From NCBI GenBank assembly GCA_016208965.1, contig JACQXB010000006.1, forward strand, positions 58,262 to 122,261: DNA of 64,000 nucleotides. Direction: 5' to 3'. The translations under genes were made by a program, and so were the position numbers. Below, piece after piece: positions 4,072-62,630 of the stretch (the stretch's first letter is position 1; each line of letters begins with the position of its first letter). The DNA is from Nitrospirota bacterium (GTDB taxonomy: Bacteria; Nitrospirota; Thermodesulfovibrionia; UBA6902; DSMQ01). The notes under the pieces are model-generated. The model was not told the origin of the DNA. It did not search any database and saw nothing but the letters and a program-made list of their open reading frames with translations.

Positions 4072-4074
4072 AAC

Positions 4075-13106: not shown

Positions 13107-13164
13107 AATTTTCAGCTCATGGCTGATAGCTGATAGCTGATAAGCTGATAGTAGTTACTATGAG

Positions 13165-19645: not shown

Positions 19646-19784
19646 CAAAGCAAATGCACTCGGACGGCAAAAAGCGCCGCTCGTTCCTCGCTCTGCCTTT
19701 TGCCGCCAGTGATTTGCAACGTTATGTAAATAAGAATATTCAAAAACAATATTCAAAAACACATCGTTTTCAGTATAATAGTGC

Positions 19785-32430: not shown

Positions 32431-32540
32431 TCCCCCCTTTGTAAAAGGGGGGTGAGGGGGGATTTTATGGATAAATGCTTCTGCTTAGAGTTTTTTATTT
32501 ATAAAAATCTCCCCTCCCCCTCTTTGCTAAAGAGGGGAAC
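32431..32540. repeat. Two degenerate C6/G6 palindromic elements, intergenic
   Basis: cttccccccttt gtaaaa ggggggtgaggggggatttt and aaaatctcccctccccctctttgctaaagaggggaac. Confidence 0.7.
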
Positions 32541-37259: not shown

Positions 37260-37261
37260 TT

Positions 37262-37708
37262 GTGGACTTCCCGCCGAATTATATTGCTAAAACTTTATCA
37301 GGCTTCTGTGTATGCTACTTCAAAAATACAACTCATGACCCCGAAGCGCCGCCACATTATCATATAACTGTCCCTATTAGTGACGATTCAAGCCTTTTAT
37401 TGTGTATTATTACTTCCCAAGTTGAAAACAAAGCATGGTATTACCATAAAACCAATGAGGAAGCAGAATCATGTCTTGTAAGTGTAGATAAACACGATTT
37501 ACCTTTCTTAAAAAGAAAGAGTTTAATTGATTGCAATCAACCGGTACTCATACACAAAAACAAGTTTAGCAAAATAATTGACCCTGACCATAAATTTGAA
37601 GTTGTAACTCGAAATATTCCAAAAGAAATCAAAAAGAAAATCGTTAAAGCAATAAAAGACAGCCCGATTGTGAAACCTTTTATTAAGAAGCTTATAAAGT
37701 TTCCTTAG
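37262..37708 (+). CDS. Hypothetical protein, candidate toxin partner of the Panacea antitoxin
   Basis: 148 aa, starts 3 bp after the DUF4065 stop. No recognisable motifs. Lys-rich C-terminus. Confidence 0.4.
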   Translation: MDFPPNYIAKTLSGFCVCYFKNTTHDPEAPPHYHITVPISDDSSLLLCIITSQVENKAWYYHKTNEEAESCLVSVDKHDLPFLKRKSLIDCNQPVLIHKNKFSKIIDPDHKFEVVTRNIPKEIKKKIVKAIKDSPIVKPFIKKLIKFP

Positions 37709-37813
37709 GAAGAATTAATCACTAAACAGAGTAGTCATATATTTGTTATAATCTTTGAAAATTAGAAAAGTTCTCTATCCGAGAATTATCATGCTCATCA
37801 ATGAGAGGATAAA

Positions 37814-39808
37814 TTGAATAAATCTGACTACAAAACTCCAGAAGAAAGAATCGGCACTGATGAAATCTTTGACATGGTCTTTAGGGATTCATCGGTGAAA
37901 TATGGCTTGCAGGAGTTTTCTAAGGATATCTTAAAAAGAATAAGTGCTTTTGAAAAAGAAGATGGTAGGTTTTATATACGTTGCTTAAAAAGAGATAAAG
38001 ACATTTTTGTTTATGACAGAAATAAAAAAATGGGTAAGCCGGAAGAAGTTATTCGCCAGCTCTGGCTTATAAAGCTAACCAAAGAATATAAATATCCTCT
38101 TGACAGAATAGAAGTTGAGAAATCAGTTCACTTTGGCAGAGAAATTAGAGAAAAATCAGCAGATATTGTTTTATATAAAGAAGACAAAATCACGCCGTAC
38201 ATCGTTTTTGAACTGAAGCAGCCTAATGCCAAGAAAGCAGAAGAACAACTGAAATCATATCTAAGCGCTGAAGGTGCAGAAGGCGGAGTCTGGTCTAATG
38301 GTATTGAGAAATTCATACTTTACCGCCCTTATCCAAAAGAATATATTACTGTCCTGTCAGACATTCCTAATGTTAATCAGACATGGGATGACCTTTTTGA
38401 AGAAAAGTGGACTTATGGTGACCTGAAGGACAAGTTTGATCTTTCTTTTATTATTTCCCGACTTGAGGAAATGGTTTTAGCACAGGCAGGCGTAAATGTA
38501 TTTGAGGAAGTTTTCAAGTTAATCTATGCCAAGCTATATGATGAAGACCAGGCAAAAGATGTACGGACAAAAGAAGAAGTTCATTTCAGACAGTATAAAG
38601 ACCCAAAGAAAACCTATGTAATTATAAATGATGAGCTTTTCAAAGGAGCAATTGATGAATGGCAAGGGATTTTTAATCCATTATCAAAAATTGATTTAAC
38701 TCCTGAACAGTTACAGATATGTGTTCCTTTTCTGGAAAAAGTTAAATTTTTTGACTCTGGAAGAGAGGAATTGGAGATAATTGACCGTGCCTTTGAGCAT
38801 TTGATTGCTGAGGTTTCAAAGGGTCAAAAAGGACAATACTTTACACCCCGCAACGTTATTAAGATGTGTGTCAAAATGCTTAATCCTAAGAAAGATGAAT
38901 ATATCATTGACCCTGCCTGTGGTTCGGGAGGATTCTTGCTTCACACTATGTATTGGGTTTGGGATAATGATTTAAAATCTGTCTCCTTTTCAGCAAAACA
39001 AAAATATGCTAATCGCTATCTCTATGGAATTGATTTTGATGATAATATGCGCCGGATTTCTCAGGCATTGATGCTAATTGCCGGTGATGGCAGGCATAAT
39101 ATCTTTAAACGCAATGCATTAGATGGAAGGGACTGGATAGGGGAACAGGCAGAGGAAGCACGGACACAGTTGAAACCATTATTAGCCAGACAATACGAGG
39201 AAAACCGCAAGACTTATCGTTATCTTAATTTTGACTTATTGATGACTAATCCTCCATTTGCAGGCGAGATTACTGATTCAGGCTTACTGCGTCAATATGA
39301 GTTTGCAAAGAAGAATGGAAAACTCAAACAGAAAGTAGAACGACACCTACTTTTCATAGAACGTTCCTTAGATGCACTCTGTCCAGGCGGAAGAATGGCG
39401 ATAGTCTTACCCCAGGGAATTTATAATAATACAAATATGGAATGGCTGAGGCTCTGGCTTTTTGAAAAGGCACGAATCCTTGCAGTGGTCGGTTTGGAAG
39501 GAAATACCTTTAAGCTCCCAGCTCCTGCAAAAGGCACAGGGACAAAGACATCTGTTTTATTTCTGCGTAAATGGGATGAAGATGAAAAGCCTTTAGAAGA
39601 TTATCCTATTTTTATGGCAGTGTCTAAAAAATCAGGTAAGGACAATTCAGGAGAGTATGTATATCTTAACGAGAAAGGGCACAGGATAAAATCAGAGGGT
39701 GGCATCTTTGAATCACATGAGAATTTAAGGCTTGATGACGATTTAGATGAAATTGCAGACGAATTTGTAAAGTTTGCAAAAAAAGAGAAATTTATGTGGT
39801 GGAGATAG
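37814..39808 (+). CDS. R-M enzyme A subunit: N-terminal HsdR_N-like PD-(D/E)xK nuclease fused to gamma-class N6-adenine MTase (BcgI-A-like)
   Basis: 664 aa. N-terminal KSADIVLYKEDKITPYIVFELKQP (D...ELK), then motif I IIDPACGSGGFLL and motif IV LLMTNPPFAG. No helicase motifs. Confidence 0.7.
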   Translation: MNKSDYKTPEERIGTDEIFDMVFRDSSVKYGLQEFSKDILKRISAFEKEDGRFYIRCLKRDKDIFVYDRNKKMGKPEEVIRQLWLIKLTKEYKYPLDRIEVEKSVHFGREIREKSADIVLYKEDKITPYIVFELKQPNAKKAEEQLKSYLSAEGAEGGVWSNGIEKFILYRPYPKEYITVLSDIPNVNQTWDDLFEEKWTYGDLKDKFDLSFIISRLEEMVLAQAGVNVFEEVFKLIYAKLYDEDQAKDVRTKEEVHFRQYKDPKKTYVIINDELFKGAIDEWQGIFNPLSKIDLTPEQLQICVPFLEKVKFFDSGREELEIIDRAFEHLIAEVSKGQKGQYFTPRNVIKMCVKMLNPKKDEYIIDPACGSGGFLLHTMYWVWDNDLKSVSFSAKQKYANRYLYGIDFDDNMRRISQALMLIAGDGRHNIFKRNALDGRDWIGEQAEEARTQLKPLLARQYEENRKTYRYLNFDLLMTNPPFAGEITDSGLLRQYEFAKKNGKLKQKVERHLLFIERSLDALCPGGRMAIVLPQGIYNNTNMEWLRLWLFEKARILAVVGLEGNTFKLPAPAKGTGTKTSVLFLRKWDEDEKPLEDYPIFMAVSKKSGKDNSGEYVYLNEKGHRIKSEGGIFESHENLRLDDDLDEIADEFVKFAKKEKFMWWR

Positions 39809-39811
39809 AAC

Positions 39812-40591
39812 ATGTTATTTTTTATAGATGAAAGTTGGCAATCAACTCAGGATGGCAAATACAAAGTCGGAGTGTTATCGGCGATTCAAATAAAAAGTCA
39901 TGATTTTAATGAGTGCTCCAAGCAGATATATGAACTTAAAATTAAAAATTTAGGATACCGTGCTGGAGATTTAGAAATTAAGGGAAGAGAAATTTTAAGA
40001 AACTATCTTTTTGAACTTGAGTCAAAAGGCATAAAATCAAAAGAACTAAATCTCGTTAGAGATATTCTTACCTATATGCAGACTTTAGGTATAAAACTTT
40101 TTGCTTCTATTGTATTCTCAAAAAAGGAAATTGATTTGGCTTGTGCTAATGTAAATCAACTTGAAAGACCATTTTTCTTTTTATTTGAACGCATAGATTT
40201 ATTTATGAAGGAAAATTATCCAGGACTTATGGCTAAGTTAATCTTTGATGATAGAGGGATACAATTCAATAAAAAAATATCAAAAAGTGTGAGTAATTTC
40301 TTCCATAAAAGTAGCATTGGCCAGGAGTTTGATACTATTATTAAAGTTCCTTTCTTTGCAATCTCCACAGAGAATGTAGGAATACAAATGGCAGATATAG
40401 TTGCTCATATTTTGGGTAGCAGATTTACAGGAGATAAAAAACAAATAGAATTTTTCAAGAAAGTTAAAAGTCTTGAGTTTATAAGCAGAACTCTTGTTGA
40501 TATAAGAGGAAAAATGTTACAACTCCTTGGATTTAAAGTAGTAAAAGAGAAAGAGGCTGGCGATTTATTCAGTCCGGGAAGAACTGTATAA
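39812..40591 (+). CDS. DUF3800-family protein embedded in the R-M operon
   Basis: 259 aa starting MLFFIDESWQ, the DUF3800 N-terminal signature. 3 bp after the A subunit stop and 100 bp before the S subunit. Confidence 0.6.
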   Translation: MLFFIDESWQSTQDGKYKVGVLSAIQIKSHDFNECSKQIYELKIKNLGYRAGDLEIKGREILRNYLFELESKGIKSKELNLVRDILTYMQTLGIKLFASIVFSKKEIDLACANVNQLERPFFFLFERIDLFMKENYPGLMAKLIFDDRGIQFNKKISKSVSNFFHKSSIGQEFDTIIKVPFFAISTENVGIQMADIVAHILGSRFTGDKKQIEFFKKVKSLEFISRTLVDIRGKMLQLLGFKVVKEKEAGDLFSPGRTV

Positions 40592-40691
40592 AACTATAAG
40601 AAAGCTTGAAAGCTCCCTACCAGCCTCAAACTTATTATAGCTTATGTTAGGGTAAAAATCAATAAATTTTAGCGGGTGAAATTTTAAAGAA

Positions 40692-42038
40692 ATGGTCACT
40701 TATTCAATCATTAAGAAATCTCAAATTGAGGGCATATATCGGCTGGATGCTGAGTATTATCAGCCAGAATATTTATCTTTAATGAAATCTTTAAAAATAA
40801 TACCAAATGTTGAATTAAACTCCCTTGCTTTTGTGACTGACGGAATTCACTCCTCAATCGATTATGATAATAAAAGTAACATCAGGTGTTTATCTGCACA
40901 ATCTGTACAAGATAACTATTTTGATTTATCAGCAAATACTTTTATTTCAGAAGATCAACATAAAGTTAATTTAAGGACAAGTCTAAAAGTAGGAGATGCT
41001 ATACTTTCATCTGTAGGAACAATCGGTAATTGTGCCGTTATAACAGATAGTATTCTACCAGCAAATGCAGACCGCCATGTAGCAATAATAAGGTTATCTG
41101 CCAATAAACTATCACCGTATTTCTTATCGGTATTTTTAAATTCTAAATACGGAAGATTTCAAACCTTAAGAGAATCTACAGGGAATGTTCAACCTAATTT
41201 ATTTATCGATAAAATCAAAAAACTGATAATTCCAACGATAAAAAACCACAGAGAGATTAGCGAATTGGCTGAAAAATCTAACGATATGATACTTGCTGCT
41301 AATTTGCTTTACTCCCAAGCCGAAAATCTGTTTTTAGAAGAATTAGGATTGAAGAATTTTAAACCACAAGAGAACTTGTCCTATGTTGTTAATCTCTCTG
41401 ATGTAAAATCCGCTCGCCGTGCCGATGCCGAATATTTCCAGCCGAAGTATAAAAGGATGGTTGAGAAAATCAAAAAACACAATTTGAGTCTACTTGGCGA
41501 TCCGGTTACAATGAAGAAAGGATTCGAGCCGGGAAGCAACGAATATCAAGATAAAGGAAAACTATTTATTCGCGTGAGCAGCATTTCAAAACATGGAATA
41601 ATTGATAAAGACCAGAAATATTTAAGTGGAGAATTGTATCAAAAATTAAGAAAAGATTTTGAGCCAAAAATTGGTGAGATATTACTGACTAAAGACGCAA
41701 CGCCCGGCATTGCCTATGTATTGAAAGAGGCTATTGAAGGAGTTGTGGCAAGCGGCATTATGCGTTTAAAACTTAAAGAGAATATTGAAGCGGAGTATTT
41801 GACTCTCTGCATCAATTCTATTGTCGGTCAAATGCAGATTGAACGTGATGCAGGCGGTTCAATAATTGCGCATTGGAAGCCAGAACAAATTAAGAACTTA
41901 CAACTCCCTATATTCCCTAAACCAACTCAGCAAAAAATCGCTGACTTAGTCCGTCAGTCCCATGAGGCAAGAAAAAAGGCAAAAGAACTCTTGGAAGAAG
42001 CAAAAAGAAAAGTTGAGGAGGAAATTGAAAATAATTAA
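40692..42038 (+). CDS. R-M specificity subunit (HsdS-like, two TRDs)
   Basis: 448 aa with conserved HsdS repeats LPIPPL...KIADLV / QQKIADLVRQ. Confidence 0.8.
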   Translation: MVTYSIIKKSQIEGIYRLDAEYYQPEYLSLMKSLKIIPNVELNSLAFVTDGIHSSIDYDNKSNIRCLSAQSVQDNYFDLSANTFISEDQHKVNLRTSLKVGDAILSSVGTIGNCAVITDSILPANADRHVAIIRLSANKLSPYFLSVFLNSKYGRFQTLRESTGNVQPNLFIDKIKKLIIPTIKNHREISELAEKSNDMILAANLLYSQAENLFLEELGLKNFKPQENLSYVVNLSDVKSARRADAEYFQPKYKRMVEKIKKHNLSLLGDPVTMKKGFEPGSNEYQDKGKLFIRVSSISKHGIIDKDQKYLSGELYQKLRKDFEPKIGEILLTKDATPGIAYVLKEAIEGVVASGIMRLKLKENIEAEYLTLCINSIVGQMQIERDAGGSIIAHWKPEQIKNLQLPIFPKPTQQKIADLVRQSHEARKKAKELLEEAKRKVEEEIENN

Positions 42039-43633: not shown

Positions 43634-45046
43634 ATGAGATATAGAACACCCCAAAAAAGAATAAAGGACTTTAAAGAAGTCGCCCTTGGGCTGACTGAAA
43701 GACAGGCAGTTAAAGAGGCAAATCGTTGTCTTCAATGCAGAAAACCAAAATGTGTTGAGGGCTGTCCTGTTGAGATTGATATTCCAAAGTTTATAGCGAT
43801 TGTAAAAGAGGGAGATTATCTAAGCGGGCTCAAAAAGATAAAAGAGTCAAATAACCTTCCTGCAATCTGCGGCAGGGTGTGCCCACAAGAGACACAGTGT
43901 GAAGGTAAGTGCATATTGAGGAAAAAAAGCAGGCCTGTCTCAATAGGGGCACTTGAGAGATTTGTGGCTGATTATGGGGTATCGTTAGGTCCTATGGAAT
44001 CGCCTAAGGTAAATCCTCCAAATGGGCATAAGGTTGCAGTTATTGGCTCAGGGCCAGCAGGGCTTACAGTAGCCTCAGACCTTGCAAGGCTTGGATATAA
44101 TACTACAGTCTTTGAGGCGCTTCACGAACCAGGTGGTGTGCTCCTCTATGGTATTCCTGAATTCAGGCTTCCAAAGAAAATCCTTCAAAGAGAGATTGAT
44201 TATGTCCGCAGCCTCGGGGTAAAGATTGTAGTTAATTGGTTAATAGGAAGAACACAGACAGCAGAGGAGCTTTTAGAGGATGGTTTTGAGGCAATTTTTA
44301 TTGGAGTTGGCGCTGGTTCCCCGAAGTACATGGGCATATTAGGTGAAAACCTGAACAATGTTTATTTTGCATCAGAGTTTCTAACAAGAGTTAATCTTAT
44401 GAAGGCTTATGACTTTCCTAAATATGATACCCCTGTTAAAAAGGCACAGAAAGTTGCTGTCATCGGGGGGGGCAATGTTGCAATGGATTCAGCAAGGACG
44501 GCATTAAGGCTCGGTGCAGAGAAGGTGTATGTGATTTATAGAAGAACCGAAAAAGAGATGCCCTCAAGACATGAGGAGGTTGAAAATGCAAAGGAAGAAG
44601 GCATAGAGTTCCATTTTCTCTCGGACCCGAGGACGGTGCTTGGAGATGAAAGGGGCTGGGTGCGCAGCGTTGAATGTGAACGGATGAGATTGGGTGAGTC
44701 TGATACATCAGGAAGAAGAACCCCTGAACCTACAGGTGAGAGATTCTGTATTGAAGTTGACCAGGTGATAGTTGCAATCGGTCAAAGTGCAAACCCAATA
44801 CTTGTCAACTCAATTAAAGGGCTGAATCTTTGGGGCAATGGTTATATCGTAGTAGATAAAGAAGGTAGGACGAATCTTGAGAGGATATTTGCAGGTGGCG
44901 ATATTACAACAGGCGCTGCTACTGTGATAAGTGCCATGGGTGCAGGGAAAAGGGCTGCGAGGGCAATTGATAATTTTATTATGAGGAGGAGAGAATCTCT
45001 CCAACAATCTCCTGAACCTGCTTTGAGTCAGAATAAGCCTCAATAA
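43634..45046 (+). CDS. NfnB/SudA/GltD-like NAD(P)H-dependent FAD/Fe-S oxidoreductase subunit
   Basis: 470 aa with Cys clusters CLQCRKPKCVEGCPV and VAVIGSGPAGL. Confidence 0.85.
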   Translation: MRYRTPQKRIKDFKEVALGLTERQAVKEANRCLQCRKPKCVEGCPVEIDIPKFIAIVKEGDYLSGLKKIKESNNLPAICGRVCPQETQCEGKCILRKKSRPVSIGALERFVADYGVSLGPMESPKVNPPNGHKVAVIGSGPAGLTVASDLARLGYNTTVFEALHEPGGVLLYGIPEFRLPKKILQREIDYVRSLGVKIVVNWLIGRTQTAEELLEDGFEAIFIGVGAGSPKYMGILGENLNNVYFASEFLTRVNLMKAYDFPKYDTPVKKAQKVAVIGGGNVAMDSARTALRLGAEKVYVIYRRTEKEMPSRHEEVENAKEEGIEFHFLSDPRTVLGDERGWVRSVECERMRLGESDTSGRRTPEPTGERFCIEVDQVIVAIGQSANPILVNSIKGLNLWGNGYIVVDKEGRTNLERIFAGGDITTGAATVISAMGAGKRAARAIDNFIMRRRESLQQSPEPALSQNKPQ

Positions 45047-46565
45047 TGGCACCTGCCTTGAATTCCTTTAGCAAATAAGGGGAACAAAAACCCACAATTA
45101 CAGTATGTCTTGATGCCTTTACTGTTTTTTTAAGTATAGTTTTTAATTTCCTGCTTAATCCACTCCTTCCTTTCCATGCAGAGATTTTTGAAAAGATGGC
45201 GATGATTAAAAATCCCCCTTTGCCCCCCTTTGTCAAAGGGGGGATGGGGGGATTTTTAGATGAAATGGTTTTATTGTCAACATAATAGGTCTCTATGTTT
45301 TTGTATCTCGCTTTAAGTGTATTAATAAATGGCTTGCCTGATTTGTTGTTGTCGTCATCAATGATGAGGACAGCTATTTGGTCTGAAAATGCTTCCTTTT
45401 TGTCATTGCGAGCCCCGAAGTTTCGGGGCGTGGCAATCTTTTTGTTTTTAATACCCTTTTGAGATTGCTTCGTCACTTCGTTCCTCGCAATGACATTTTT
45501 TACGATGCTTATTGATTTTTTTGTCAGCTTATAAGCAAAATCCCAGTTTGCCTTTGTTCCGATATCTTGCATCCTGTATCGTGCATCTTGTATCACTAAT
45601 TCTTTTTTCCCTTTTATAATTTTTTCGTAAGACTCATCAACCCTCTTTTCTATCTCATTCCATCTTGAGGAAAAATAATCTATTATTCTTTCAGGTTCGC
45701 TTGGATGAAGGATTATGTCTGCGCCTGCATTTAAAGCCATTAAACATGCCTTCTCCTCAGGATATCTAATTGCCTGCATATTCATTGCATCTGTGACTAC
45801 AAGTCCTTTAAATTTCATTTCAGTTTTTAGTAATCCTTTAATGGTCTTCTCCGAGAGGCTTGATGGAAATCTTGAATCAATAGCAGGCACTTTGAGGTGA
45901 CCTACCATTACCATCTTGACTCCTGACTTTATTGCCTCTTTAAAGGGATGTAGTTCAACTTTTTCAAGCCTTTTCATATCTGCCTTTACTATTGGTAGCC
46001 TTATATGAGAGTCCACGCTCGTATCTCCATGCCCTGGAAAATGTTTTGCACAAGCAATAATCCTGTGTTTCTGAAAACCTTTTATAAATTCATTCCCAAA
46101 CCATGAGACCTTTTCAGGATTCTCACCAAATGCCCTTACAGAGATTATAGGATTTTGGGGGTTTGTGTTTATATCAAGTACAGGTGCAAATATTACATTT
46201 ATTCCACATGCCTTTGCCTCTTGAGCGATAATGTTTATGGAGTTCCTTAACAGATTAATATCATCTTTATTTTTTGGGTTAATCGCCTGTCCAATAGCCA
46301 TAGCTGGAGGGAACAATGTGCCGCCTTCTATCTGCTGTCCAAGTCCTCGTTCAAGGTCAGAGGTTATAAAAAGAGGGATTTCACTTAGTTTCTGCAATTT
46401 CTTAATTGCCTCGCTTACATCTTTTAGCTTCCCGCCAAAAACAATAAAACCACCAATGCCTTTCTTAACAAGCGATTGGTAATATTGAAACTTTTTATGG
46501 ACATCTTTCCCATCAAGCCTTGCAATTATAAGCTGTGCAATTTTTTTATTTTTATCCATGGGCAT
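44979..46565 (-). CDS. Glycoside hydrolase family 3, NagZ-like beta-N-acetylhexosaminidase with a C-terminal extension
   Basis: KHFPGHGDTSVDSH motif. The C-terminal ~150 aa contains two in-frame repeat elements at 45208-45256 and 45395-45492. Start Met chosen at MPMDK. Confidence 0.7.
   Translation of the reverse strand: MPMDKNKKIAQLIIARLDGKDVHKKFQYYQSLVKKGIGGFIVFGGKLKDVSEAIKKLQKLSEIPLFITSDLERGLGQQIEGGTLFPPAMAIGQAINPKNKDDINLLRNSINIIAQEAKACGINVIFAPVLDINTNPQNPIISVRAFGENPEKVSWFGNEFIKGFQKHRIIACAKHFPGHGDTSVDSHIRLPIVKADMKRLEKVELHPFKEAIKSGVKMVMVGHLKVPAIDSRFPSSLSEKTIKGLLKTEMKFKGLVVTDAMNMQAIRYPEEKACLMALNAGADIILHPSEPERIIDYFSSRWNEIEKRVDESYEKIIKGKKELVIQDARYRMQDIGTKANWDFAYKLTKKSISIVKNVIARNEVTKQSQKGIKNKKIATPRNFGARNDKKEAFSDQIAVLIIDDDNNKSGKPFINTLKARYKNIETYYVDNKTISSKNPPIPPLTKGGKGGFLIIAIFSKISAWKGRSGLSRKLKTILKKTVKASRHTVIVGFCSPYLLKEFKAGAIIEAYSDSKQVQEIVGEILSSS
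45208..45256. repeat. C6/G6 palindromic element inside the GH3 CDS
   Basis: aaaaatccccctttgcccccctttgtcaaaggggggatggggggatttt translates NPPIPPLTKGGKGGF. Confidence 0.85.
45395..45492. repeat. GTCATTGC...GCAATGAC palindromic element inside the GH3 CDS
   Basis: gtcattgcgagccccgaagtttcggggcgtggcaatc...gattgcttcgtcacttcgttcctcgcaatgaca. Confidence 0.7.
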
Positions 46566-46629
46566 AAAGTAGCATTGAGGGTTAAAAATTGTCAAAAGAT
46601 AGTATTGAAAATTACCTCAGCAGAGTAAT

Positions 46630-52599: not shown

Positions 52600-52926
52600 T
52601 TTGCTTCCTCAATAGGGTTTTAAGGATTCAAGGATGAAAGTGAAAATTAAAAATCAAAGATAAAAAATTAAAATGACAGATTAAAATGTAAAAATATCTT
52701 CCTGACATTATCTTTGAATTTTGATTTGTCATTTTGCATTTTGATTTTTAATCTTTTATTTAGTTCCTTGATCCTTACGCCCCTTGAATCCTTTTTATAT
52801 CATATCAATTGATATGGTTCATGTCAAGTAAGTTTATTAAAGAAAGCAAAAATAGCCATAGTTTTTTTAAGAATTCGCGAGAATCATTATGTCAATCCCG
52901 AAGTGCCGGGAACACAAAGAATTATG

Positions 52927-53073
52927 AAAATCCCCCTCCATCCCCCTTTTTCAAAGGTATGAACCAGAGCGGTTCATACCAAAGGGGGAAATTTTCCCCC
53001 CTATTAAGAGGGGATAAAGGGGTGTATTCCCCTCTTTAGCAAAGAGGGGTGAGGGGAGATTTTATAAATAGAG
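52927..53073. repeat. Composite cluster of 2-3 C6/G6 palindromic elements with an inner hairpin
   Basis: aaaatccccctccatcccccttttt...aaagggggaaattttcccccc...ctttagcaaagaggggtgaggggagatttt. Confidence 0.7.
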
Positions 53074-53154
53074 TATTTTCGGGTCAATGGTTAATAAAAG
53101 GAATTGATTAGGAAAGGATGTAAAAAGATAAATATAGGAGTGAATTTTGGATAA

Positions 53155-54375
53155 TTAATTCAAAAGCCTTACACGCACCTTTGCGCCTTTTTTTATAAAT
53201 TCTTCATCTTCAGGTAAAATCATCAGGCTATTGGCAAGCATCATTGATTTTAATATTGCAGAACCCTGAGGACCTGTAGCCTTTGTTATATAACCACTGT
53301 TTTCCCATCGGGTCTGTGCCCTGAGGAAAAACCTCAGTCCTTTTTTCTTCTTTATATCCTCATCTAATATAGCCTCTACCTCTTTTATGCTATCATCCTT
53401 CTGTCCTAACATCTTAAGGATAGCAGGCATTACAAACATCTCAAAACTCACCATGCTTGAGACAGGATTTCCCGGCAATCCAAACACAGGCTTCCCATCC
53501 ATTATACCGAATAATACAGGTTTCCCTGGCCGCATTGCGATTTTCCAGAACTTTATCTCTGCCCCTAATCTCACTAAAACATCTTTAATTAAATCATAGT
53601 CCCCCATGGAGACCCCGCCGGATGTAACTATTGCATCATGCCCTCTGCACAGATTTATCTTCTTCTCTAAATCCCCTATATCATCTCTTGCAATGCCTAT
53701 GTTTGCCGGCTCCCCACCGCAACTCAGTATCTGGTTATATAATGTGTAGGTATTAGAGGTTCTGAGCTTCCCGTGTGTTAATTGTTCTTCTACATCTATT
53801 AGTTCATCGCCTGTTGCCAGGATAGCAACATGGGGTTTTCTTGTAACCTTTGCCCTTGAGATACCTAAGGCTGCAAGCATACCTATATGGGCCGGCTTCA
53901 GTAATGTTCCCTTTTGAATCACAAGCTCGCTGCTTTTTATATCTTCTCCTGCCTTTCTTATGTTATCACCGTATTCTACCTCTTTAAAAATCTTTACTTT
54001 TGACTTTTGACTTTTGACTTTTGACTTCTCAGTCTCTTCAACCATTATCACAGAATCAGCACCTTTAGGTATTGGCGCTCCTGTCATAATCTTTATTGCC
54101 TGACCGTGTTTTGTCTCCATAGAGGCAGCAATACCTGCTTTAATTTCTCCAATAACATCCAAAATTTTTGGCGTCTCATTTGAAGCGCCGACAGTATCAG
54201 ATGATTTAATCGCATACCCATCCATTCCAGAGTTATCAAAGGCAGGGATATCGCCACTGCTAAATGCATCTTCATACAGCACTCTTCCTAATGAATCTGA
54301 AAGAGAGATAGTTTCTGAATCTAATGGTGCGATAGAGTTAAGTATAATTGTTAATGCATCTTCAACTTTTATCAT
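53155..54375 (-). CDS. moeA: Molybdopterin molybdenumtransferase MoeA
   Basis: 406 aa reading GGVSMGDYD. Contains in-frame (ttttgac)x4 at 53996-54027, translated KSKVKSQKSKVK. Confidence 0.85.
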   Translation of the reverse strand: MIKVEDALTIILNSIAPLDSETISLSDSLGRVLYEDAFSSGDIPAFDNSGMDGYAIKSSDTVGASNETPKILDVIGEIKAGIAASMETKHGQAIKIMTGAPIPKGADSVIMVEETEKSKVKSQKSKVKIFKEVEYGDNIRKAGEDIKSSELVIQKGTLLKPAHIGMLAALGISRAKVTRKPHVAILATGDELIDVEEQLTHGKLRTSNTYTLYNQILSCGGEPANIGIARDDIGDLEKKINLCRGHDAIVTSGGVSMGDYDLIKDVLVRLGAEIKFWKIAMRPGKPVLFGIMDGKPVFGLPGNPVSSMVSFEMFVMPAILKMLGQKDDSIKEVEAILDEDIKKKKGLRFFLRAQTRWENSGYITKATGPQGSAILKSMMLANSLMILPEDEEFIKKGAKVRVRLLN

Positions 54376-54520: not shown

Positions 54521-54575
54521 AAGCTAATAAGCTATAAGCTAAGAGCTAAAAGCTAATAGCTAATAGCTAAATAGA
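54521..54575. repeat. Heptanucleotide tandem repeat (a[at]aagct)x8
   Basis: taagcta ataagct ataagct aagagct aaaagct aatagct aatagct. Confidence 0.8.
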
Positions 54576-54629: not shown

Positions 54630-55784
54630 ATGAAGAGAAAAATTACAATAGGCACACGAAGTAGCAAGCTTGCCTTATGGCAGGCTGAATGGGTTAAATC
54701 TGAACTCAAAAAGCTTAACTCTGATTTAGAGATTGAACTTAAAAAGATTAAGACTACAGGTGATAAAATTCTTGATGTCCCTCTTGCAAAAATTGGCGGC
54801 AAAGGGCTTTTTGTAAAGGAGATAGAAGAAGCACTTTTAAGAAGAGAGGCTGACTTAGCAGTCCACAGCATGAAGGATGTGCCAACTGATTTACCTCAAG
54901 GGCTTCATATATCCGCTATATGTAAGAGGGAGAATCCGAGAGATGCCTTAATAGTAAGTCAAAAGTCAAATCCCCCCTTACCCCCCTTTGCTAAAGGGGG
55001 GCGTGGGGGGATTTTAAACTCGTCACTCGTTACTCGTCACTCGTTACTATACGAGCTTCCACATGGTGCAACAATTGGCACGAGCAGTCTTAGAAGAATA
55101 TGCCAGATATTAAGCATACAGCCTAATTTTAAAATTACACAGCTTCGCGGAAATCTTGATACAAGGATAAGAAAACTTGATGAAGGGAAGTTTGACGCCA
55201 TTATTGTTGCAGTTGCGGGTGTAAAAAGGCTGGGTTTATCTCATAGAATTACTGAAACTCTTGAACCTGATATATGTCTGCCCGCTATAGGTCAAGGGGC
55301 TGTTGGTATAGAATGCAGAACCGATGATAAATTTATAAATAGCATCCTTTCACCTTTAAATCACGTTGAAACATCTGTATGTGTGAAGGCAGAAAGGGCA
55401 TTCCTTAAGAGGTTAGAGGGCGGCTGTCAGGTGCCAATTGCAGCGTATGCGAGAATTGAGAAGATGCAAGATTCAGGATACAGGATTCAGGATACAGGAT
55501 TCAAGATACAGGATAATCATGCATCGTGCATCATGCATCATGCATCCGACATCGTCACTCGTCAATCATTACTATATATTGATATTGACGGTCTTATCGG
55601 CAGCGTCTCCGGAGACAGACTCATAAAAGGTCACATAGAGGGAAATCCTCAGGATGCAGAAAAACTTGGGGTCAACCTCGCGGAGGATTTACTCTCAAGA
55701 GGTGGAGAAAAAATACTTGCAGAGATTTATCCAGTTAGATCACTATCATCCGCTAACCATCTGAAACCCATTGATAATACATGA
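54630..55784 (+). CDS. hemC: Porphobilinogen deaminase with three in-frame repeat-derived insertions
   Basis: IGTRSSKLALWQA and the cofactor region are present. Insertions: a C6/G6 palindrome at 54968-55015, an (actcgtc/actcgtt)x4 run at 55015-55050, and 7-mer runs (caggata/caggatt)x6 plus (catgcat)x4 at 55462-55550. Confidence 0.85.
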   Translation: MKRKITIGTRSSKLALWQAEWVKSELKKLNSDLEIELKKIKTTGDKILDVPLAKIGGKGLFVKEIEEALLRREADLAVHSMKDVPTDLPQGLHISAICKRENPRDALIVSQKSNPPLPPFAKGGRGGILNSSLVTRHSLLYELPHGATIGTSSLRRICQILSIQPNFKITQLRGNLDTRIRKLDEGKFDAIIVAVAGVKRLGLSHRITETLEPDICLPAIGQGAVGIECRTDDKFINSILSPLNHVETSVCVKAERAFLKRLEGGCQVPIAAYARIEKMQDSGYRIQDTGFKIQDNHASCIMHHASDIVTRQSLLYIDIDGLIGSVSGDRLIKGHIEGNPQDAEKLGVNLAEDLLSRGGEKILAEIYPVRSLSSANHLKPIDNT

Positions 55785-55877: not shown

Positions 55878-56267
55878 TTACTTTTGAGGAATTAATGCCC
55901 TGTGTCTTTTTAGAAAATAGTCCCAGTCATGATGCCGCCGCAGCATGGATGACTCAAACAGGATTCGTGCCTCGGTGTCTTTGTCAGCAATGACCATCCC
56001 GTCGTTGATTATCTCAAAGGCAAATACAGGCTCCTCAACAGTATTAAGCACTGTAACCTGCACTTCTTCTTTTATTTCCCTTTCTATCTCTGCTTCAAGA
56101 TAGAACCGTGACCAGTCCTTAAGGCATTTCACATCAAAATAAACAGCAACATCCCAATCACTCTTTATGCCAGCAAAACCTTTTACCCTTGACCCAAAAA
56201 GATAACCAAATACAACACACTTGTTTTTCACCAATATATGCCTTATCTTCTCTAAAGTATCCTTCAT
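55878..56267 (-). CDS. Minimal nucleotidyltransferase (MNT)
   Basis: GSRVKGFAGIKSDWDVAVYFD. Confidence 0.75.
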   Translation of the reverse strand: MKDTLEKIRHILVKNKCVVFGYLFGSRVKGFAGIKSDWDVAVYFDVKCLKDWSRFYLEAEIEREIKEEVQVTVLNTVEEPVFAFEIINDGMVIADKDTEARILFESSMLRRHHDWDYFLKRHRALIPQK

Positions 56268-56674
56268 AGTCTCTCTATATATTTTATAAACTGTTCTATA
56301 TCTTTAATACCAGATTTAAGAAATTTCTCGAGCTCTGGCACTGTGTTTTTCTGATAATCGTGAGCAAGGAAATTCCTGAGTCCCGCAATATAGACAAATT
56401 TATGAGCAAAACCCTTAGGAATAATAGCGTAATCTCCAAGTTTATAAATAGAATCACTATATGTGGAGGCCTTGGGATAACCTTTTTTTATTATAATTAA
56501 GTCTGAAATGTCAAGGACTATTTCTGAACAAAGATAGATGGAACGTTCCGCAATTTTTTTTGCCTCAATAGATGTCTTAAGTTTTTTTAGTAATTCAGGC
56601 TTGCTTTTTTTAAGATAGAATAATTCCTCTTTCAGACGTTCAAGTTTTTGAAAAAGAACTCTATCCATGACCAA
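56264..56674 (-). CDS. HepT/DUF86-family (HEPN) protein
   Basis: RNFLAHDYQ fits the Rx4HxY motif. Overlaps the MNT gene by 4 bp. Confidence 0.7.
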   Translation of the reverse strand: MVMDRVLFQKLERLKEELFYLKKSKPELLKKLKTSIEAKKIAERSIYLCSEIVLDISDLIIIKKGYPKASTYSDSIYKLGDYAIIPKGFAHKFVYIAGLRNFLAHDYQKNTVPELEKFLKSGIKDIEQFIKYIERL

Positions 56675-57336: not shown

Positions 57337-58560
57337 TTATAGCATATCCCATGGGATGGCAAATATGTTATGGGCAAGCTGCTTTACCTCTCTGCCGGTA
57401 TATATTAAGAGTCCAGCAGTAAATTTATTGTTCACACCTTTAAAAAACAGCAAGTTCTTTATATCACCCGCAGAAACAGTTTCTGAAAGTTTTATCTCAA
57501 CTGCTACTACTCCGTTTTCCTTTTCAATTACAAGGTCAACTTCCTTCTCCTTACCACCCTGCGTCCTGAAATAAAACACCTCTCCACCCAAAATGGATGT
57601 CATCACAATAAAGGTCAAAAGCACATAGGACTCAAGCAATGCTCCCATAAATGTTATCGGTATATCGCTTGACGAGAGATAGCCTGCAAGAGAGACTGTC
57701 AGCCCTGTGTCAATACAAAAAATCTTAGGAGATTTAATAAGCCTTACACTCATGTTCTTTGAGTACGGCTTTAACTTCATAAACAAATTTGTAGTCTCAA
57801 GTATATTAATATATCTGCCAAGCGTTGCCTGAGATAAGCCAGCGTCCCTCGCAACCTCGCTCTGTTTTAAAATTGAAGCATTTCTAATAGCAAGCAACTC
57901 CATTACCTTTTTAAAGTCAGATAGATATGAGACCTCTGAAATCTCTCTTAGATCCCTTTCAAGATAAGTCTTCTCATAAGCCTTCAGCCACATAGCAATG
58001 TGGTCTTCTTTTTTTAGAGATACAACGGGCGGAAGAAAACCCCTGAATAGGGTAAACTTCAAATCTATATCCGATGGTGTATAGCTGTCTTGAGTCTCTG
58101 AAGCCTTTCCCTTAGTTAAAAGCTTTTCAATCCATCTGTTTGGGACTCTTTCCATGAACTCCCCAAAGGAAAAAGGCAGGAGATTAAAATATATTGCCCT
58201 TCCTGCCAGACTCTCGGATACTCTCTTCATCAAGAGCATATTGGCCGAACCTGAAAGGACGATCCTCCTTGATTTGTCTTTATCTACTGCACTTTTTACA
58301 GCGTGCATAAAGGCAGGGGAGCGTTGGGCTTCATCAATGATTATATTTTTTGATATGTTAAGTATATCATTGGGCCTTTTTTCTGCGATTGAAAGAATAT
58401 CAAGATCGTCAAATGTAATGTAATGCCAGTCTCTGAATGGCTCTTCATTCTGAAGGAGAGTGCTTTTCCCTGTCTGCCTCGCCCCTGAAAGAACAATAAC
58501 AGGAGAAAATTCAACAGCATCCCTCATTTTCTCAGCAATCCACCTCTGTTTGTATATCAT
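57337..58560 (-). CDS. AAA-family ATPase with DUF4143
   Basis: Walker A GARQTGKSTLL. 407 aa. Confidence 0.8.
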   Translation of the reverse strand: MIYKQRWIAEKMRDAVEFSPVIVLSGARQTGKSTLLQNEEPFRDWHYITFDDLDILSIAEKRPNDILNISKNIIIDEAQRSPAFMHAVKSAVDKDKSRRIVLSGSANMLLMKRVSESLAGRAIYFNLLPFSFGEFMERVPNRWIEKLLTKGKASETQDSYTPSDIDLKFTLFRGFLPPVVSLKKEDHIAMWLKAYEKTYLERDLREISEVSYLSDFKKVMELLAIRNASILKQSEVARDAGLSQATLGRYINILETTNLFMKLKPYSKNMSVRLIKSPKIFCIDTGLTVSLAGYLSSSDIPITFMGALLESYVLLTFIVMTSILGGEVFYFRTQGGKEKEVDLVIEKENGVVAVEIKLSETVSAGDIKNLLFFKGVNNKFTAGLLIYTGREVKQLAHNIFAIPWDML

Positions 58561-59753
58561 GATATAAATTATATCATATCATGATAGAAAATATATCAAG
58601 TAACCAAGTTTTTTGGAAGGAATCAAAGAATATTTAACCCAGAAAATGCATTTCAAAATGATATGGATGACTGAAAAAGCTCTATTCGCAACACCTTAGC
58701 ATGTCGTTACATAATCAGTAAGTGCATAAATTTATGCAAAAACATTTATAAAGATTATGTAATGACACATATCAAATCTTGTTGCTTCATAGAGGTTTTG
58801 AAGGCATCCATATCTTCTTATTCCTTTTCTTAACTGCATTTTCTGGGTTAAAGGAATGCGAGTTTGAGATACTTAAATATAAGACAAAATACGGGTATTC
58901 TTTTAAAGTGGTTCAGAACCCTGAACAATACTGCACAGCTTGCTTTAACAATAACTACCCTATCTTTACTCCAGAGGAAAAAGTAGAGCAGATAGCGCTC
59001 TTTTAAGGTGTTCCTGAATTACTGCCAAGAAGTTCATAAGTATGACCACATGGACGTCATTCCTCCCGATGCTTCGGGATCGGGAATCTTTCTTTTCTGG
59101 AAGGATTGCGGACAAGCCGCAATGACAGTAATAGAGGGAGATGTGGCTTTACTTTTGACCGCATTAGTATTTACCTTCTTCTGTCTATATATTGAATTAA
59201 TTCTTTCTGGAAGTTCGGTATTACATCAATAAGTTTCTTGAAGTTTTTATATACTTCTTTATAATCTAACTCTAAATATTCATGGATGAGAATATTTCTA
59301 TATCCGCCTAATCCCTAATCCCTGATTTATTTTAGTCAAGTATTTTATGGCATAATTACAAAAATCGGTGTCCAGAAATTGCAAATTATTTTTTAAAATC
59401 AGGCATATTTATCTCTATATCTCCACTGCCAATCTTTATTGTCCGAGGCTTCGAGCCGCTTCTGCTTCCCTCTTGATCAGTACGCCTCTCATAATAGTCC
59501 CTTCTCCCGAAGAAGTCGGGACTGTAAGCTCATCCTCCACAGCCACCTCAAGCATCATCCTCGGTACGAACCGTCTGGTTCATACCTCGCCCCTATCCTT
59601 GTTAGCTCTGCCAGTGAACTCCTTTGCTTCAATTCTCCTAACCCTTTCTCAATGACTTTTTTTGACTTCTTTGATAAACTCTTTCTCATGGGTATAGTTC
59701 TCCTTTCTCCCTTTTAGGGATTGTTTTAATCCATTGAGAATTATACCCTTTTT

Positions 59754-60143: not shown

Positions 60144-62630
60144 TTAGAACTGTCCCCCTTTTTTCATTTTTTGTGTCTTGTGGATTCCCTCTGCCCTGAC
60201 TGCAAGATCAACCTTGCTGATCCAGTGCGTCCCAGGGAGAGGAGGATTGTCAATCCAGTTTGTTCCACCGCCGTGGCACTGTCCGCATGCGTAGTCAACG
60301 TCGACCCAGGCTGCGTTTGCATAGGTAGTAGTGGTATAGGTAGTGCCGCCAACTTCAATACTATGCGCATCATCAGACACCATATTGGCGATCTTCTTGG
60401 TAGCAGTACCACCGATACCGAACTCCAAAGCAGTCGGGAAGGTGCTGTAGCTGTCATCAGTATTGATCCTCCACAGGTGCATCGGGAAGCCGCCTGATGT
60501 TGCTTTAGGCATATGGCAAATCTTACAAGACTCAGCTTTTGCTTCAGCAGACATGTCTTCCTGAGGCGTTCCTGTTCCCATCTTGTGGGATATAGGTGTG
60601 GTTGCCTCAGTAGTGTGGCAAGTTACGCACTCCCTTCTTAAAGGCTCTGTTGCAGCAGGGTCGAAGAGACTCTGGTGAACATCGTGGCATGTTGTGCAGT
60701 TTCCCTGTGACTGATTAGCCCACCATGTGCCACCGGCATCAGCACATTGTGTGCTGGTCGTAATTTTTGTACCGTTTGCGTTGGTGGAAAGTATCGAACC
60801 CGTAGCTCCCGTGCCTGACCTGCAGAAAGAGTCTTTAAAGTTGCTGGCATACGTACCGCCGGAAACAATATCATACTTTCCGAGTGAGTTAGGCACAATT
60901 GTTCCTGTAAACTGTCCATGCGGGCTGTTCAGGAACGAGCCGCCCAGTACATGGCCGCTGAACTCCGGAATGTATGCCGGTGCGGTGGCGGTATTCTTGA
61001 CAGGAAGATACTCGGGATGAGTAAGGTCGTTATTTACGCCAGTACCATTAGTCTCCTTGGCAACGCTCTGGTGGCAACTGTAGCAAAGATTGTTTATATC
61101 GGATCCCGATGGTGTAAGATTATGAGTCGAAGTAACCGCAGTCGTTCCGCTATATACAGCCGGGACTGTTGAGGCATGGCACCTTGAGCATATAATACCG
61201 TCCTGGTCCCATTGTCCGGTTATACCGGCAATAGAGTTTTTGTCGGGATTAGACCCACCCTTTGCATACGAAGGGAAAGATGTCCCGGGTTCCAGTCCGC
61301 CTATGCCGTATCCCTGCACGCCTGTGGATGGATACCAGGTGCCTAATGCTGCTTCACACGTTGCCTGTGTGGTCTTTGAGGATATACTGCAAAGACCTAC
61401 CGTGGTGGTTTCGTTCCTCCAGCCTGTTGCATGGCATGATGCGCAACTGTAGCCAGAGCCGACGCCGTTATACCTGGCGTACGTACCCATCCAGACTACG
61501 GTGTAAAGACCGTCCGGCGCAGGCGCCATCCAGTCTCCGAAGAGGTACATCAGAGGCTTGGTGCCCCAAAGAGTGGTTGTAGCTGTTCCGGCGCCAAAGT
61601 CAAGTGTCTGGTAGTCGCCGGCCGTTGCTCCACTTGGTACCGCAGCCTGTGTATAGACAACGCTGTCAGGACCTGCCCAGTTCATGCCGGGGGTTACCTT
61701 CCTGAGCATGTTCTTGTGGCCTGTCATTGTGTAGTCCTGCTTCCATCTTTCAGCATACGAGTTATATTGTGATGTGTTGTTATGACATCTGAGGCACATA
61801 GTGGTGCTGGCGCTACCAGATGTTAGAGTAGCTACTGTTGCAGAACCGATTGTTGTTGTGCCGCTCTGGATGATTGTATTGTTCCATGAAAAGCCGTCGG
61901 TTATGCACGTGCCCATATTGGTATATGTTGTCAAGTCGGCCGGAAGTGCTGCATGGGCCGCAACAGTCGTTCCGCCGGCGAGGTTCTTAATTGGGTCCCA
62001 GTTACCGGTAGACCTCGATTTAGCACCATTTAAGCCTCCCCCAATACCATAAGCATAGATACATGAATTGGCCGAAGTACCCGAAGTACTCCATGAAAAG
62101 CCGATGCCTGCTGCGATACAGGAAGCCTGATCACCGTATGTAGAAGTTACATCTACCGAAGCATAGCAGAAGCCTTCTGTACCTGCTCCACTCGGTCCCA
62201 TTAAATACCAGGCAGAGGTACATTTTGATGCCCAGATTCCGCCATTTGCAGTGCACATGGCCGAAGTTCTATCCAGGCCGCTCAGGGATATACCGGTTGT
62301 CCCGCTGGAACAGGTGCTTGCCCAGAAATGGGCGCCGTCAGGATTTGTTGTAACTCCGCAGAGTGCCTGAGTTGTATAAGTAGAGGGCGACTGTAAATTC
62401 GCTATACAGTCAGCACGTGATGTTTTGGTTGCATCAATCGTCATGGTGCCGTCTGCTGCAATACCTGTAACGCATTTACCTCTGTCAGCAGGTAAATCCC
62501 ATAAGCCGGTCGTTCCGTTCTGTTCAGCGCCGTCAGGAAGGTAAATTGCCTGGGTGCTGCCGGCAAAGACAAACGGAATTGCCAGAACAAAAAACGCTGC
62601 CATAAAAAGCAGTTTAGGTTTAAATTTCAT
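60144..62630 (-). CDS. Secreted multiheme cytochrome c (8 CxxCH)
   Basis: Signal peptide MKFKPKLLFMAAFFVLAIPFVFAGSTQA. Haem-binding sites CLRCH, CASCH, CSRCH, CYSCH, CTTCH, CVTCH, CKICH, CGQCH. Confidence 0.85.
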   Translation of the reverse strand: MKFKPKLLFMAAFFVLAIPFVFAGSTQAIYLPDGAEQNGTTGLWDLPADRGKCVTGIAADGTMTIDATKTSRADCIANLQSPSTYTTQALCGVTTNPDGAHFWASTCSSGTTGISLSGLDRTSAMCTANGGIWASKCTSAWYLMGPSGAGTEGFCYASVDVTSTYGDQASCIAAGIGFSWSTSGTSANSCIYAYGIGGGLNGAKSRSTGNWDPIKNLAGGTTVAAHAALPADLTTYTNMGTCITDGFSWNNTIIQSGTTTIGSATVATLTSGSASTTMCLRCHNNTSQYNSYAERWKQDYTMTGHKNMLRKVTPGMNWAGPDSVVYTQAAVPSGATAGDYQTLDFGAGTATTTLWGTKPLMYLFGDWMAPAPDGLYTVVWMGTYARYNGVGSGYSCASCHATGWRNETTTVGLCSISSKTTQATCEAALGTWYPSTGVQGYGIGGLEPGTSFPSYAKGGSNPDKNSIAGITGQWDQDGIICSRCHASTVPAVYSGTTAVTSTHNLTPSGSDINNLCYSCHQSVAKETNGTGVNNDLTHPEYLPVKNTATAPAYIPEFSGHVLGGSFLNSPHGQFTGTIVPNSLGKYDIVSGGTYASNFKDSFCRSGTGATGSILSTNANGTKITTSTQCADAGGTWWANQSQGNCTTCHDVHQSLFDPAATEPLRRECVTCHTTEATTPISHKMGTGTPQEDMSAEAKAESCKICHMPKATSGGFPMHLWRINTDDSYSTFPTALEFGIGGTATKKIANMVSDDAHSIEVGGTTYTTTTYANAAWVDVDYACGQCHGGGTNWIDNPPLPGTHWISKVDLAVRAEGIHKTQKMKKGGQF

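Follow-up and report, generated by a model that had tools for sequence, protein, structure and literature searches.

Two hypervariable loops of HemC in a Nitrospirota clade hold in-frame repeat DNA that is probably translated and tolerated

We analysed a 64-kb stretch of a Nitrospirota metagenome-assembled genome (MAG; contig JACQXB010000006.1), hereafter called the window, and in it the gene hemC for hydroxymethylbilane synthase (porphobilinogen deaminase), which occupies positions 54630..55784 of the + strand and encodes a protein of 384 residues. Two loops of this enzyme are extended by inserts made up of tandem arrays of 7-nt units and, in one of them, a C6/G6 palindrome. The inserts are the same repeat DNA that is found across this genome window, and the two loops are hypervariable, with fast turnover, across a Thermodesulfovibrionales-like clade of Nitrospirota. 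The reading that we favour, with a probability of roughly 0.8, is that two surface loops of HemC hold lineage-specific repeat DNA which is translated, tolerated and rapidly turned over. Translation of the inserts, continued activity of the enzyme and the manner in which the repeats move are what we infer from the evidence below.

Two insertion sites on an intact HemC core

The hemC gene is the one long open reading frame (ORF) of the region 54630-55784. It is intact and is assigned to HemC by two Pfam domains (PF01379, Porphobil_deam, E=7e-85; PF03900, Porphobil_deamC, E=4e-18), and its product matches the E. coli HemC structures 1AH5 and 1PDA with E~1e-92. A first-pass annotation, made from the sequence alone, had remarked that the ORF is overlong for an enzyme of typically about 310 residues, and the length of 384 residues is confirmed. 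Residues R10, K82/D83, R155/R156, R173, R179 and C266 are invariant in an alignment of 61 orthologues and correspond, in the register of the E. coli alignment, to E. coli R11, K83/D84, R131/R132, R149, R155 and C242. In E. coli numbering, C242 binds the cofactor, while D84, R11, R131, R132, R149 and R155 are catalytic residues. The AlphaFold2 model of the window protein (mean pLDDT 81.9, pTM 0.81) displays the three-domain HemC fold, its core being confident and unchanged by the inserts, and it superimposes on 1PDA with a target-normalised TM-score of 0.93-0.94 (Foldseek E=2e-39). Values of pLDDT below 50 are limited to residues 49-58, the known mobile active-site lid, and to residues 121-134, 285-310 and 371-384. 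Thus, hemC in this window appears to be a working gene with an active product.

HMMER aligns the protein with E. coli HemC in three blocks (query 5-109 with E. coli 6-110, 138-276 with 114-252 and 320-367 with 260-307), and the extra residues therefore fall at two sites. The first-pass annotation had attributed the extra length to three separate repeat stretches; the repeats are real, the third site is not. The palindrome and the ACTCGTC/T, CAGGATW and CATGCAT repeats that it named were all recovered by TRF and repeat searches, with the reading frame open throughout. Its list was incomplete, since the AAGTCAA array that opens the first site and the degenerate ACTCGTC module that closes the second had been overlooked. 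Nor is all of the extra length repeat DNA: in addition to the two sites there is a C-terminal tail (residues 368-384, 55731..55781, + strand), which is non-repetitive, has no TRF match and begins where the E. coli alignment stops, at query residue 367. About 11 residues of this tail are extra, without a counterpart past residue 307-313 of E. coli HemC, and its residues 371-384 have pLDDT below 50.

Site 1 (54957..55040; this and all features of hemC described below lie on the + strand) is an alignment gap of 84 nt that encodes residues 110-137, SQKSNPPLPPFAKGGRGGILNSSLVTRH. Its 28 residues take the place of three in E. coli HemC (N111-Y113), a net gain of 25, and lie behind the first strand of domain 2; in the model, strand 105-109 precedes them and helix 139-142 comes after. 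The site is composite. At its 5' end stands an AAGTCAA array of 2.1 units (54956..54970, found by TRF), read as SQKS. It is followed by a 45-nt double-stem palindrome (54969..55013) of the form AAT-C6-TTA-C6-TTT-GCT-AAA-G6-CGT-G6-ATT, which is read in phase 0 as NPPLPPFAKGGRGGI; an inverted-repeat search delimits its 22-nt arms at 54968-54989 and 54993-55014 and finds them 86% complementary. The 111-nt RNA region that contains this hairpin (54950-55060) folds at -43.2 kcal/mol, with z = -5.8. The 3' module (55018..55053) consists of 4.4 units of ACTCGTC/ACTCGTT and a terminal TTACTATAC, read as SSLVTRHSLLY, and its TRF array (55018-55048) has a 14-nt period that is 100% matched.

Site 2 (55458..55586) is a gap of 129 nt that encodes residues 277-319, EKMQDSGYRIQDTGFKIQDNHASCIMHHASDIVTRQSLLYIDI. 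Here, 43 residues, a net gain of 36, stand where domain 3 of E. coli HemC has a beta-hairpin turn of 7 residues (253-259); in the model they are flanked by strands 270-278 and 315-324. The site contains a CAGGATA/CAGGATT array (55461..55515, found by TRF and by repeat search; TRF gives 6.6 units in the GATACAG register at 55470-55515), read in all three frames as QDSGYRIQDTGFKIQD, and a CATGCAT array detected by TRF (55516..55546; 4.4 units in the ATCATGC register), read as NHASCIMHHAS. It is closed by the degenerate second ACTCGTC...TTACTATA module (55552..55576), which is read as VTRQSLLY and is 88% identical to 55027-55051. Because the unit length of 7 is not a multiple of 3, such arrays are read through all three frames and yield peptides with a period of seven residues; the predicted insert peptides include GGILNSSLVTR, IQDTGFK and IQDNHASCIMHHASDIVTR. 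Mapping onto the structure, as had been proposed earlier, places both inserts in loops (AlphaFold2 model against 1PDA). Each lies between secondary-structure elements and has pLDDT below 50 (residues 121-134 and 285-310), so that in the HemC model the fold is normal and the inserts look like floppy, disordered extensions of two of its surface loops. The 29-residue insert of human HMBS was considered as a possible occupant of the same loop, a correspondence that we do not claim.

Loop variation among HemC relatives

The best 120 orthologues listed come from Nitrospirota/Thermodesulfovibrionales metagenome assemblies, are 59-69% identical to the window protein and have 318-394 residues. Almost all of their length variation falls at the same two loops, which span 10-60 residues at site 1 and 10-54 residues at site 2. 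Both sites are filled in nearly all 120, and the inserts are open and in-frame in every one of them. The fillings include SQKSKVKSQK-type heptamers, NPPLPPFSKGGRGGI hairpins, NSSLVTRHSLL and MQDSGYKIQD; the NPPLPPFSKGGRGGI hairpins occur at site 1 in 48 and at site 2 in 32 of the 120, and many copies are visibly decayed. Relatives with short or near-empty sites are also found. Site 2 is empty or a short, E. coli-like hairpin in distant relatives (L003, L004, L005, L007, L024 and P0102, the last with 'ARLIDGRVVMDGLVGS'), and site 1 is near-empty in P0072 ('ITKVQSFKDL') and L206. The inserts thus do not align with conserved HemC sequence; had they done so, the earlier idea of insertion would have been overturned. 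That idea, of tolerated insertions in surface loops, is supported by the disordered loops on an intact core, by the empty sites in relatives and by the occurrence of the repeats throughout the window. What does not survive is the picture of one-off, clean events, for the fillings are composite and act as rapidly replaced cassettes; that they are translated and selfish is a probable interpretation of them.

Replacement is best seen in three close alleles, L081, L204 and L205. Their core protein is 97.6-99% identical, and their third codon positions are ~90% identical. The contrast between amino-acid identity (98-99%) and third-position identity (~90%) shows that these close hemC alleles are under strong purifying selection. 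Site 2 of L081 is filled with 97 nt of CAGGATA and CATGCAT arrays and that of L205 with 109 nt of AAGTCAG...CTCTTCA arrays, while L204, with 25 nt (TLNNGKLSMD), is empty there. The three sequences, otherwise nearly identical, split abruptly after GCTCATGCG and rejoin at TGGATGGATT. Comparison of the filled and empty alleles revealed neither a target-site duplication nor a clean insertion boundary. Such a pattern would be expected if the hairpin-turn segment had been replaced as a whole, plausibly through recombination between alleles; it does not look like the clean insertion of a transposon. By eye, the variants that flank site 2 group mosaically, L081 with L205 at the 5' end and L204 with L205 downstream, and this visual impression suggests that hemC alleles have recombined, the breakpoint being at the variable loop.

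The modules are also found in other combinations. The site-1 composite of the window and the site-2 composite of L083 are identical at 88 of 94 nt (94%), whereas the two hemC cores agree at only 57% of their four-fold degenerate sites; either the composite was recently acquired from a homogeneous family, or it is held constant by some cause other than HemC function. In L083 site 2, too, the ACTCGTY module with TTACTATAC stands 3' of the palindrome. Lineages also differ in which heptamer unit occupies a site (site 1 has CAGGATA x4 in L083 and GGCAGTC in L001), and the AAGTCAA array has grown to 5 units in L082. The CAGGATW unit of the window recurs at site 2 of L081, with a CATGCAT-related array at the matching place. 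Around hemC in other Nitrospirota, neither hairpins nor period-7 arrays were detected, and 320 kb of sequence from 50 other taxa likewise had none, these repeat-free controls having been drawn from a HemC-protein scan of the genome collection that returned mostly distant taxa and few close relatives.

Repeat families across the window

Copies of the hairpin family outside hemC are located at 5635-5705, 6621-6658, 32432-32461, 45214-45251 and 52932-53001. The palindrome pattern has 5 matches at 3 loci in the window, as against 0 in 100 shuffles, and all window copies have the ends AAAT...ATTT. Several copies lie in-frame within genes: two in tandem at 5635-5705 in a DNA methylase ORF (5235-6101; ...NPPQSPFVKGGLKNIPPLEKGGKGGF...), one at 6621-6658 in a metallophosphoesterase (6221-7039; NPPLPPFSKGGQGGF) and one at 45214-45251 in a GH3 hydrolase (44979-46595; NPPIPPLTKGGKGGF). 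The dnaJ-moeA intergenic region (52860-53080) is filled with degenerate hairpin copies, which give rise to a spurious ORF of 76 residues (52809-53039; ...NPPPSPFFKGM...).

Like the hairpin pattern, the heptamer arrays go far past chance expectation. The window contains 9 strong tandem arrays of period 7, whereas periods 4-6 and 8-12 have 0 and Markov resamples also yield 0; the units are AAGTCAR, ACTCGTY, CAGGATW, CATGCAT, AAGCTAA and AGCTGAT. Five of the nine strongest arrays are inside conserved enzymes (HemC, NadB and MoeA), in the middle of domains. In addition to those of hemC, the AAGTCAR family is represented in-frame by AAGTCAG x4 in nadB, the L-aspartate oxidase gene (29611-29641, SQKSEVRSQ), and by AAGTCAA x4.6 in moeA (53989-54027, - strand, KSKVKSQKSKVK), and an array with a 14-nt period is in-frame in the GH3 gene (45563-45594, - strand). 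According to a stop-codon test, arrays within genes are stop-free in the direction of the host gene. The intergenic AAGCTAA array has stops in every frame of both strands, and the intergenic AGCTGAT array (8115-8149) has stops on one strand. The former is the TRF array of 7.1 units in the 5' leader of hemC (54521..54571, + strand), which ends 59 nt before the ATG.

Intergenic heptamer arrays also stand just upstream of other start codons. Such arrays are located at 54521-54571, 7510-7551, 8115-8149 and 13115-13142, and the genes concerned are the ORF 7635-8096, nusB, lepA and, as described, hemC. A GTYACTY-family array ends ~6 nt before the likely ATG of nusB, and AGCTGAT-type arrays lie ~19 nt before the ORF 7635-8096 and ~9 nt before lepA. 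Arrays in such positions may influence translation initiation. No transposase, RAYT or reverse transcriptase was found in a Pfam scan of 40 ORFs of the 64-kb window, and no Rfam family reached its gathering score in the window or in hemC, the gene giving only noise with E>0.2.

The hairpin in metagenomes

A scan of metagenome contigs for the exact hairpin pattern returned at least 120 loci, which reduce to 108 unique contexts; the counts in this section refer to the matches listed, and a hairpin was considered to be in an ORF if the frame is open for at least 60 codons on both sides of it. By this definition, 44 of 108 hairpins (41%) are in ORFs, as compared with 48% of random 45-nt windows from the same loci, so that in this sample the hairpin shows no clear depletion from coding sequence. 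As many as 39 of the 44 in-ORF copies are read in phase 0 (NPPLPPFxKGGxGGI), 5 in a second phase and none in the third. Perfectly complementary spacers, among which the pairing of TTA with TAA would create an in-frame stop, are rarer within ORFs (4/44) than outside them (18/64, p=0.017). Pfam confirms hosts with domain matches that span the hairpin, namely, TatD, ribonucleotide reductase, class-III aminotransferase, amidohydrolase, GltX and HypF. Many in-ORF copies share TCA...ACT flanks, and a strict heptamer run within 60 nt accompanies 10 of 35 in-ORF copies on the pattern strand (29%) but only 4 of 61 others (7%).

Several different repeat-derived inserts may occur in a single host, as in L110 (CarB-like), L118 and L179 (HypF), and one HypF has at least four Pro/Gly-rich segments derived from hairpins; hemC is therefore not unusual in being hit more than once. 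In L113 and L197, the heptamer arrays on either side of the hairpin are reverse complements of each other (e.g. AAGGTCA ... TGACCTT), which lengthens the palindrome. This arrangement was seen in some metagenome loci such as L113 and not in hemC, and no general rule emerged. The possibility that the hairpin is a bidirectional intrinsic terminator was considered and set aside as a general explanation: a consensus scan flags only the copy at 45226-45251 and not that of hemC, the content of U/A tracts is nearly equal in ORF and non-ORF contexts (106 contexts, one of six measures at p=0.007), and most copies have no tract.

Origin of the loop fillings

According to the favoured reading, repeats would enter and leave hemC at the DNA level. 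Likely routes are some process of transposition or recombination, slippage of the arrays during replication, and the swapping of entire loop segments from one hemC allele to another. Selection would then pass only versions that are in-frame and free of stops, at places where the fold accepts a floppy extension. Two loops, the one behind the first strand of domain 2 and the one that forms the hairpin turn in domain 3, appear to be permissive in this sense, which accounts for their hypervariability across the clade. A number of points weigh against this reading. Translation and activity are deduced from the sequence and from a structural model. A very stable hairpin in a coding region (-43 kcal/mol for the 111-nt region) could hinder translation, and slippage of a heptamer array by one unit in either direction would shift the frame of an enzyme that is presumably essential for heme, which makes the tolerance and recurrence of such arrays odd. 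The high DNA conservation of the composite could mean functional constraint. A transposase, RAYT or reverse transcriptase that might drive the mobility step was not found in the 64-kb window, and no target-site duplication is visible between alleles. Finally, as the sequences are metagenome assemblies, repeat copy numbers may be imprecise.

A more far-reaching proposal, which we regard as a minority possibility, is that in this Thermodesulfovibrionales-like lineage an active and distinct DNA process, mutational or mobile and with its own machinery, writes 7-nt arrays and a coding-adapted C6/G6 hairpin into coding DNA and swaps loop cassettes, possibly the same process that makes the heptamer arrays of cyanobacteria and Beggiatoaceae. 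The repeats would then be more than passive junk. The marks of the in-ORF hairpin subfamily would then be its reading in phase 0, its stop-avoiding spacers and its TCA...ACT flanks, and the outcome would be hypervariable surface loops in highly conserved core enzymes.

It is rather improbable that the fillings are themselves selected and functional, either at the protein level, as flexible Gly/Pro-rich or 7-residue-periodic loops with a part in regulation or interactions, or at the RNA level, as translational pause, mRNA stability or terminator-like elements. Such a function would explain why the composite is 94% identical in DNA while neutral sites of the host gene are at 57%, why the in-ORF copies can be recognised as a subfamily by their TTA spacer, reading in phase 0 and TCA...ACT flanks, why the hairpin region folds so strongly (-43 kcal/mol, z = -5.8) and why both sites are occupied in nearly all 120 listed orthologues. 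However, alleles that are 98-99% identical have wholly different contents, one of them being empty, and many copies are decayed, which argues for turnover rather than constraint. Moreover, the same element is found at unrelated positions of unrelated enzymes, AlphaFold2 predicts the inserts to be disordered, and most copies lack the U tract of a terminator, with little difference in this respect between those inside and those outside ORFs.

We consider it very unlikely that the inserts are removed before the mature protein is formed, whether as intron-like RNA, by translational bypassing over the hairpin, of which phage T4 gene 60 is an example, or as an intein. The strong hairpin within the coding sequence and inserts that seem, from the model, dispensable for the fold would suit such removal, yet neither the open frame of the inserts in all 120 listed orthologues nor the single prevailing phase (39 of 44) and the avoidance of stop-creating spacers in the listed metagenome copies would be needed if the inserts were skipped. 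Furthermore, no stop codon follows a take-off site, the inserts being free of stops; Rfam has no match, intron or other, in the window or the gene; Pfam reveals no Hint/intein domain; and the inserts comprise only 28 and 43 residues. Hence, the preserved frame and avoidance of stops, the lack of an intron family or intein domain and the shortness of the inserts all make removal at the RNA or protein level unlikely.

An assembly artefact from mis-joined, repeat-rich reads, which the first-pass annotation had named as a possible refutation, or a decaying, non-functional copy of hemC would fit a MAG with tandem repeats that are hard to assemble and a second hemC that might lie outside the 64-kb window, but we give either scarcely any credence, since NCBI has an independent record of exactly this protein (MBI4653666.1, on a 167-kb contig of a Nitrospirota MAG), more than 100 independent assemblies share the matching architecture, with similar in-frame fillings in the 120 listed orthologues, site 1 (84 nt) and the 72-109-nt cassettes of relatives fit within a read of an assumed 150 nt (site 2 being 129 nt), the frame and all catalytic residues are intact, and the close alleles are under strong purifying selection (98-99% amino-acid versus ~90% third-position identity).

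Gene neighbourhood

An ORF for a multiheme c-type cytochrome of 828 residues is located at 60144-62630, with a local GC content of 0.51 as against ~0.39 for the window. Such a protein implies a real demand for heme and thus the need for a working hemC. Directly downstream of hemC is a HepT/MntA toxin-antitoxin pair, and the window as a whole is rich in defence and addiction genes (656-6101, 17626-21369, 36687-42038 and 55878-56674). These include four N6_N4 DNA methylase ORFs, a ThaI-type restriction enzyme and a type I HsdM/HsdS pair, as well as PIN/DUF4411, a SocA-like antitoxin and a YhcG nuclease present as two ORFs (2294-2893 and 2927-3328). A 22-nt direct repeat in two copies (ATATCATGATAGAAAATATATC, 58554-58598) overlaps the start of an AAA/DUF4143 ATPase gene, beyond which it reaches a short way upstream, and is related to neither the heptamer arrays nor the hairpins.

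Implications

The best-known case of selfish DNA that lies in-frame within housekeeping genes is that of Rickettsia, and it is often attributed to selection being relaxed in an intracellular way of life. The element described here is another one and seems to behave similarly in bacteria that live freely in the environment; among the matches listed, its share of copies in ORFs is nearly that of random positions. Heptamer arrays, of which those of cyanobacteria are also called STRR, have been of puzzling origin for decades and were described as essentially intergenic; in this clade they stand in the middle of enzymes, despite the hazard of frameshift. What sets the present case apart is its clade-wide scale, the recurrent occupation of the same loops, the rapid turnover of cassettes and the presence of 7-nt arrays in essential genes. 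As whole cassettes distinguish alleles that are 98-99% identical, it should be possible to measure directly how fast and by what mechanism the repeats turn over, with the hemC loops as a natural, easily amplified marker. In-frame repeats also offer a map, ready for use, of the loops that tolerate insertion in many enzymes. On the other hand, such inserts make proteins longer, give rise to spurious 'hypothetical proteins', of which ORF 52809-53039 is one, and can mislead metagenome annotation and homology clustering.

Comparison with known repeat systems

In the open-access literature, that on MITEs in Nitrospirota included, we found no prior description of the hairpin, of its peptide signature or of in-gene heptamer arrays in Nitrospirota. 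In the REPtron, REP palindromes are associated with a RAYT, a tyrosine transposase of IS200/IS605 type. They carry a GTAG/CGTC tag, and intragenic REPs are known (PMC3733652); prokaryotic MITEs have likewise been described (PMC10969869). Like REPs and MITEs, the hairpin is a short, GC-rich stem-loop of high copy number, of which some copies lie in genes and are predicted to be translated. In contrast to REPs, its ends are AAAT...ATTT without GTAG or CGTC, the latter being found only in the adjoining ACTCGTC heptamers of hemC. No RAYT was found among the 40 ORFs scanned in these 64 kb of the genome. Unlike MITEs, it leaves no target-site duplication between filled and empty hemC alleles, and, unlike both, it shows no clear depletion from coding sequence, the in-ORF fraction among the matches listed (41%) being close to random (48%). 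Lacking the tag, a nearby RAYT and a target-site duplication, the hairpin is filed neither as a REP nor as a classical MITE.

Heptamer arrays are known as the TAACTGA arrays of Beggiatoaceae and cyanobacteria, which in Beggiatoa give LSVISYQ peptides when translatable (PMC4679880), and as the G-rich heptamers of Xanthomonas and Nostoc (PMC4692102). They are described as mostly intergenic, those within genes being found in hypothetical proteins or at the ends of proteins, with no known mechanism (PMC4679880, PMC4692102). The window resembles these systems in its over-represented arrays of exactly 7 nt, in their lineage specificity and mixed unit families, and in the 7-residue-periodic peptides that arise when arrays are translatable; as in the TAACTGA arrays of Beggiatoaceae, many arrays stand just upstream of start codons (PMC4679880). 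The units differ from the three with which they were compared, TAACTGA, GGGAATC and GGGGAYT (PMC4679880, PMC4692102), and, whereas the known arrays are overwhelmingly intergenic, those of the window are mid-domain in conserved enzymes.

The closest parallel in manner of working is that of the Rickettsia palindromic elements (RPEs; Ogata et al. 2000), which, as summarised in a review (PMC10969869), are ~150 bp long and lie in-frame in many housekeeping genes. As the length and host lineage differ, we do not claim membership in the described RPE families. Like RPEs, the hairpin forms a short, scattered palindromic family that occurs in-frame in many unrelated genes as well as between genes, and its positions, in HemC at least, seem to fit the protein fold, so that by analogy it may be regarded as selfish DNA in coding sequence. 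Unlike RPEs, with the ~150 bp given in that review (PMC10969869), it is a C6/G6 double hairpin of 45 nt, its hosts are free-living Nitrospirota from environmental metagenomes rather than obligate intracellular bacteria, and it is often flanked by heptamer arrays. Also in contrast to RPEs, two loops of one enzyme are refilled repeatedly with different contents, and turnover is visible between alleles that are 98-99% identical.

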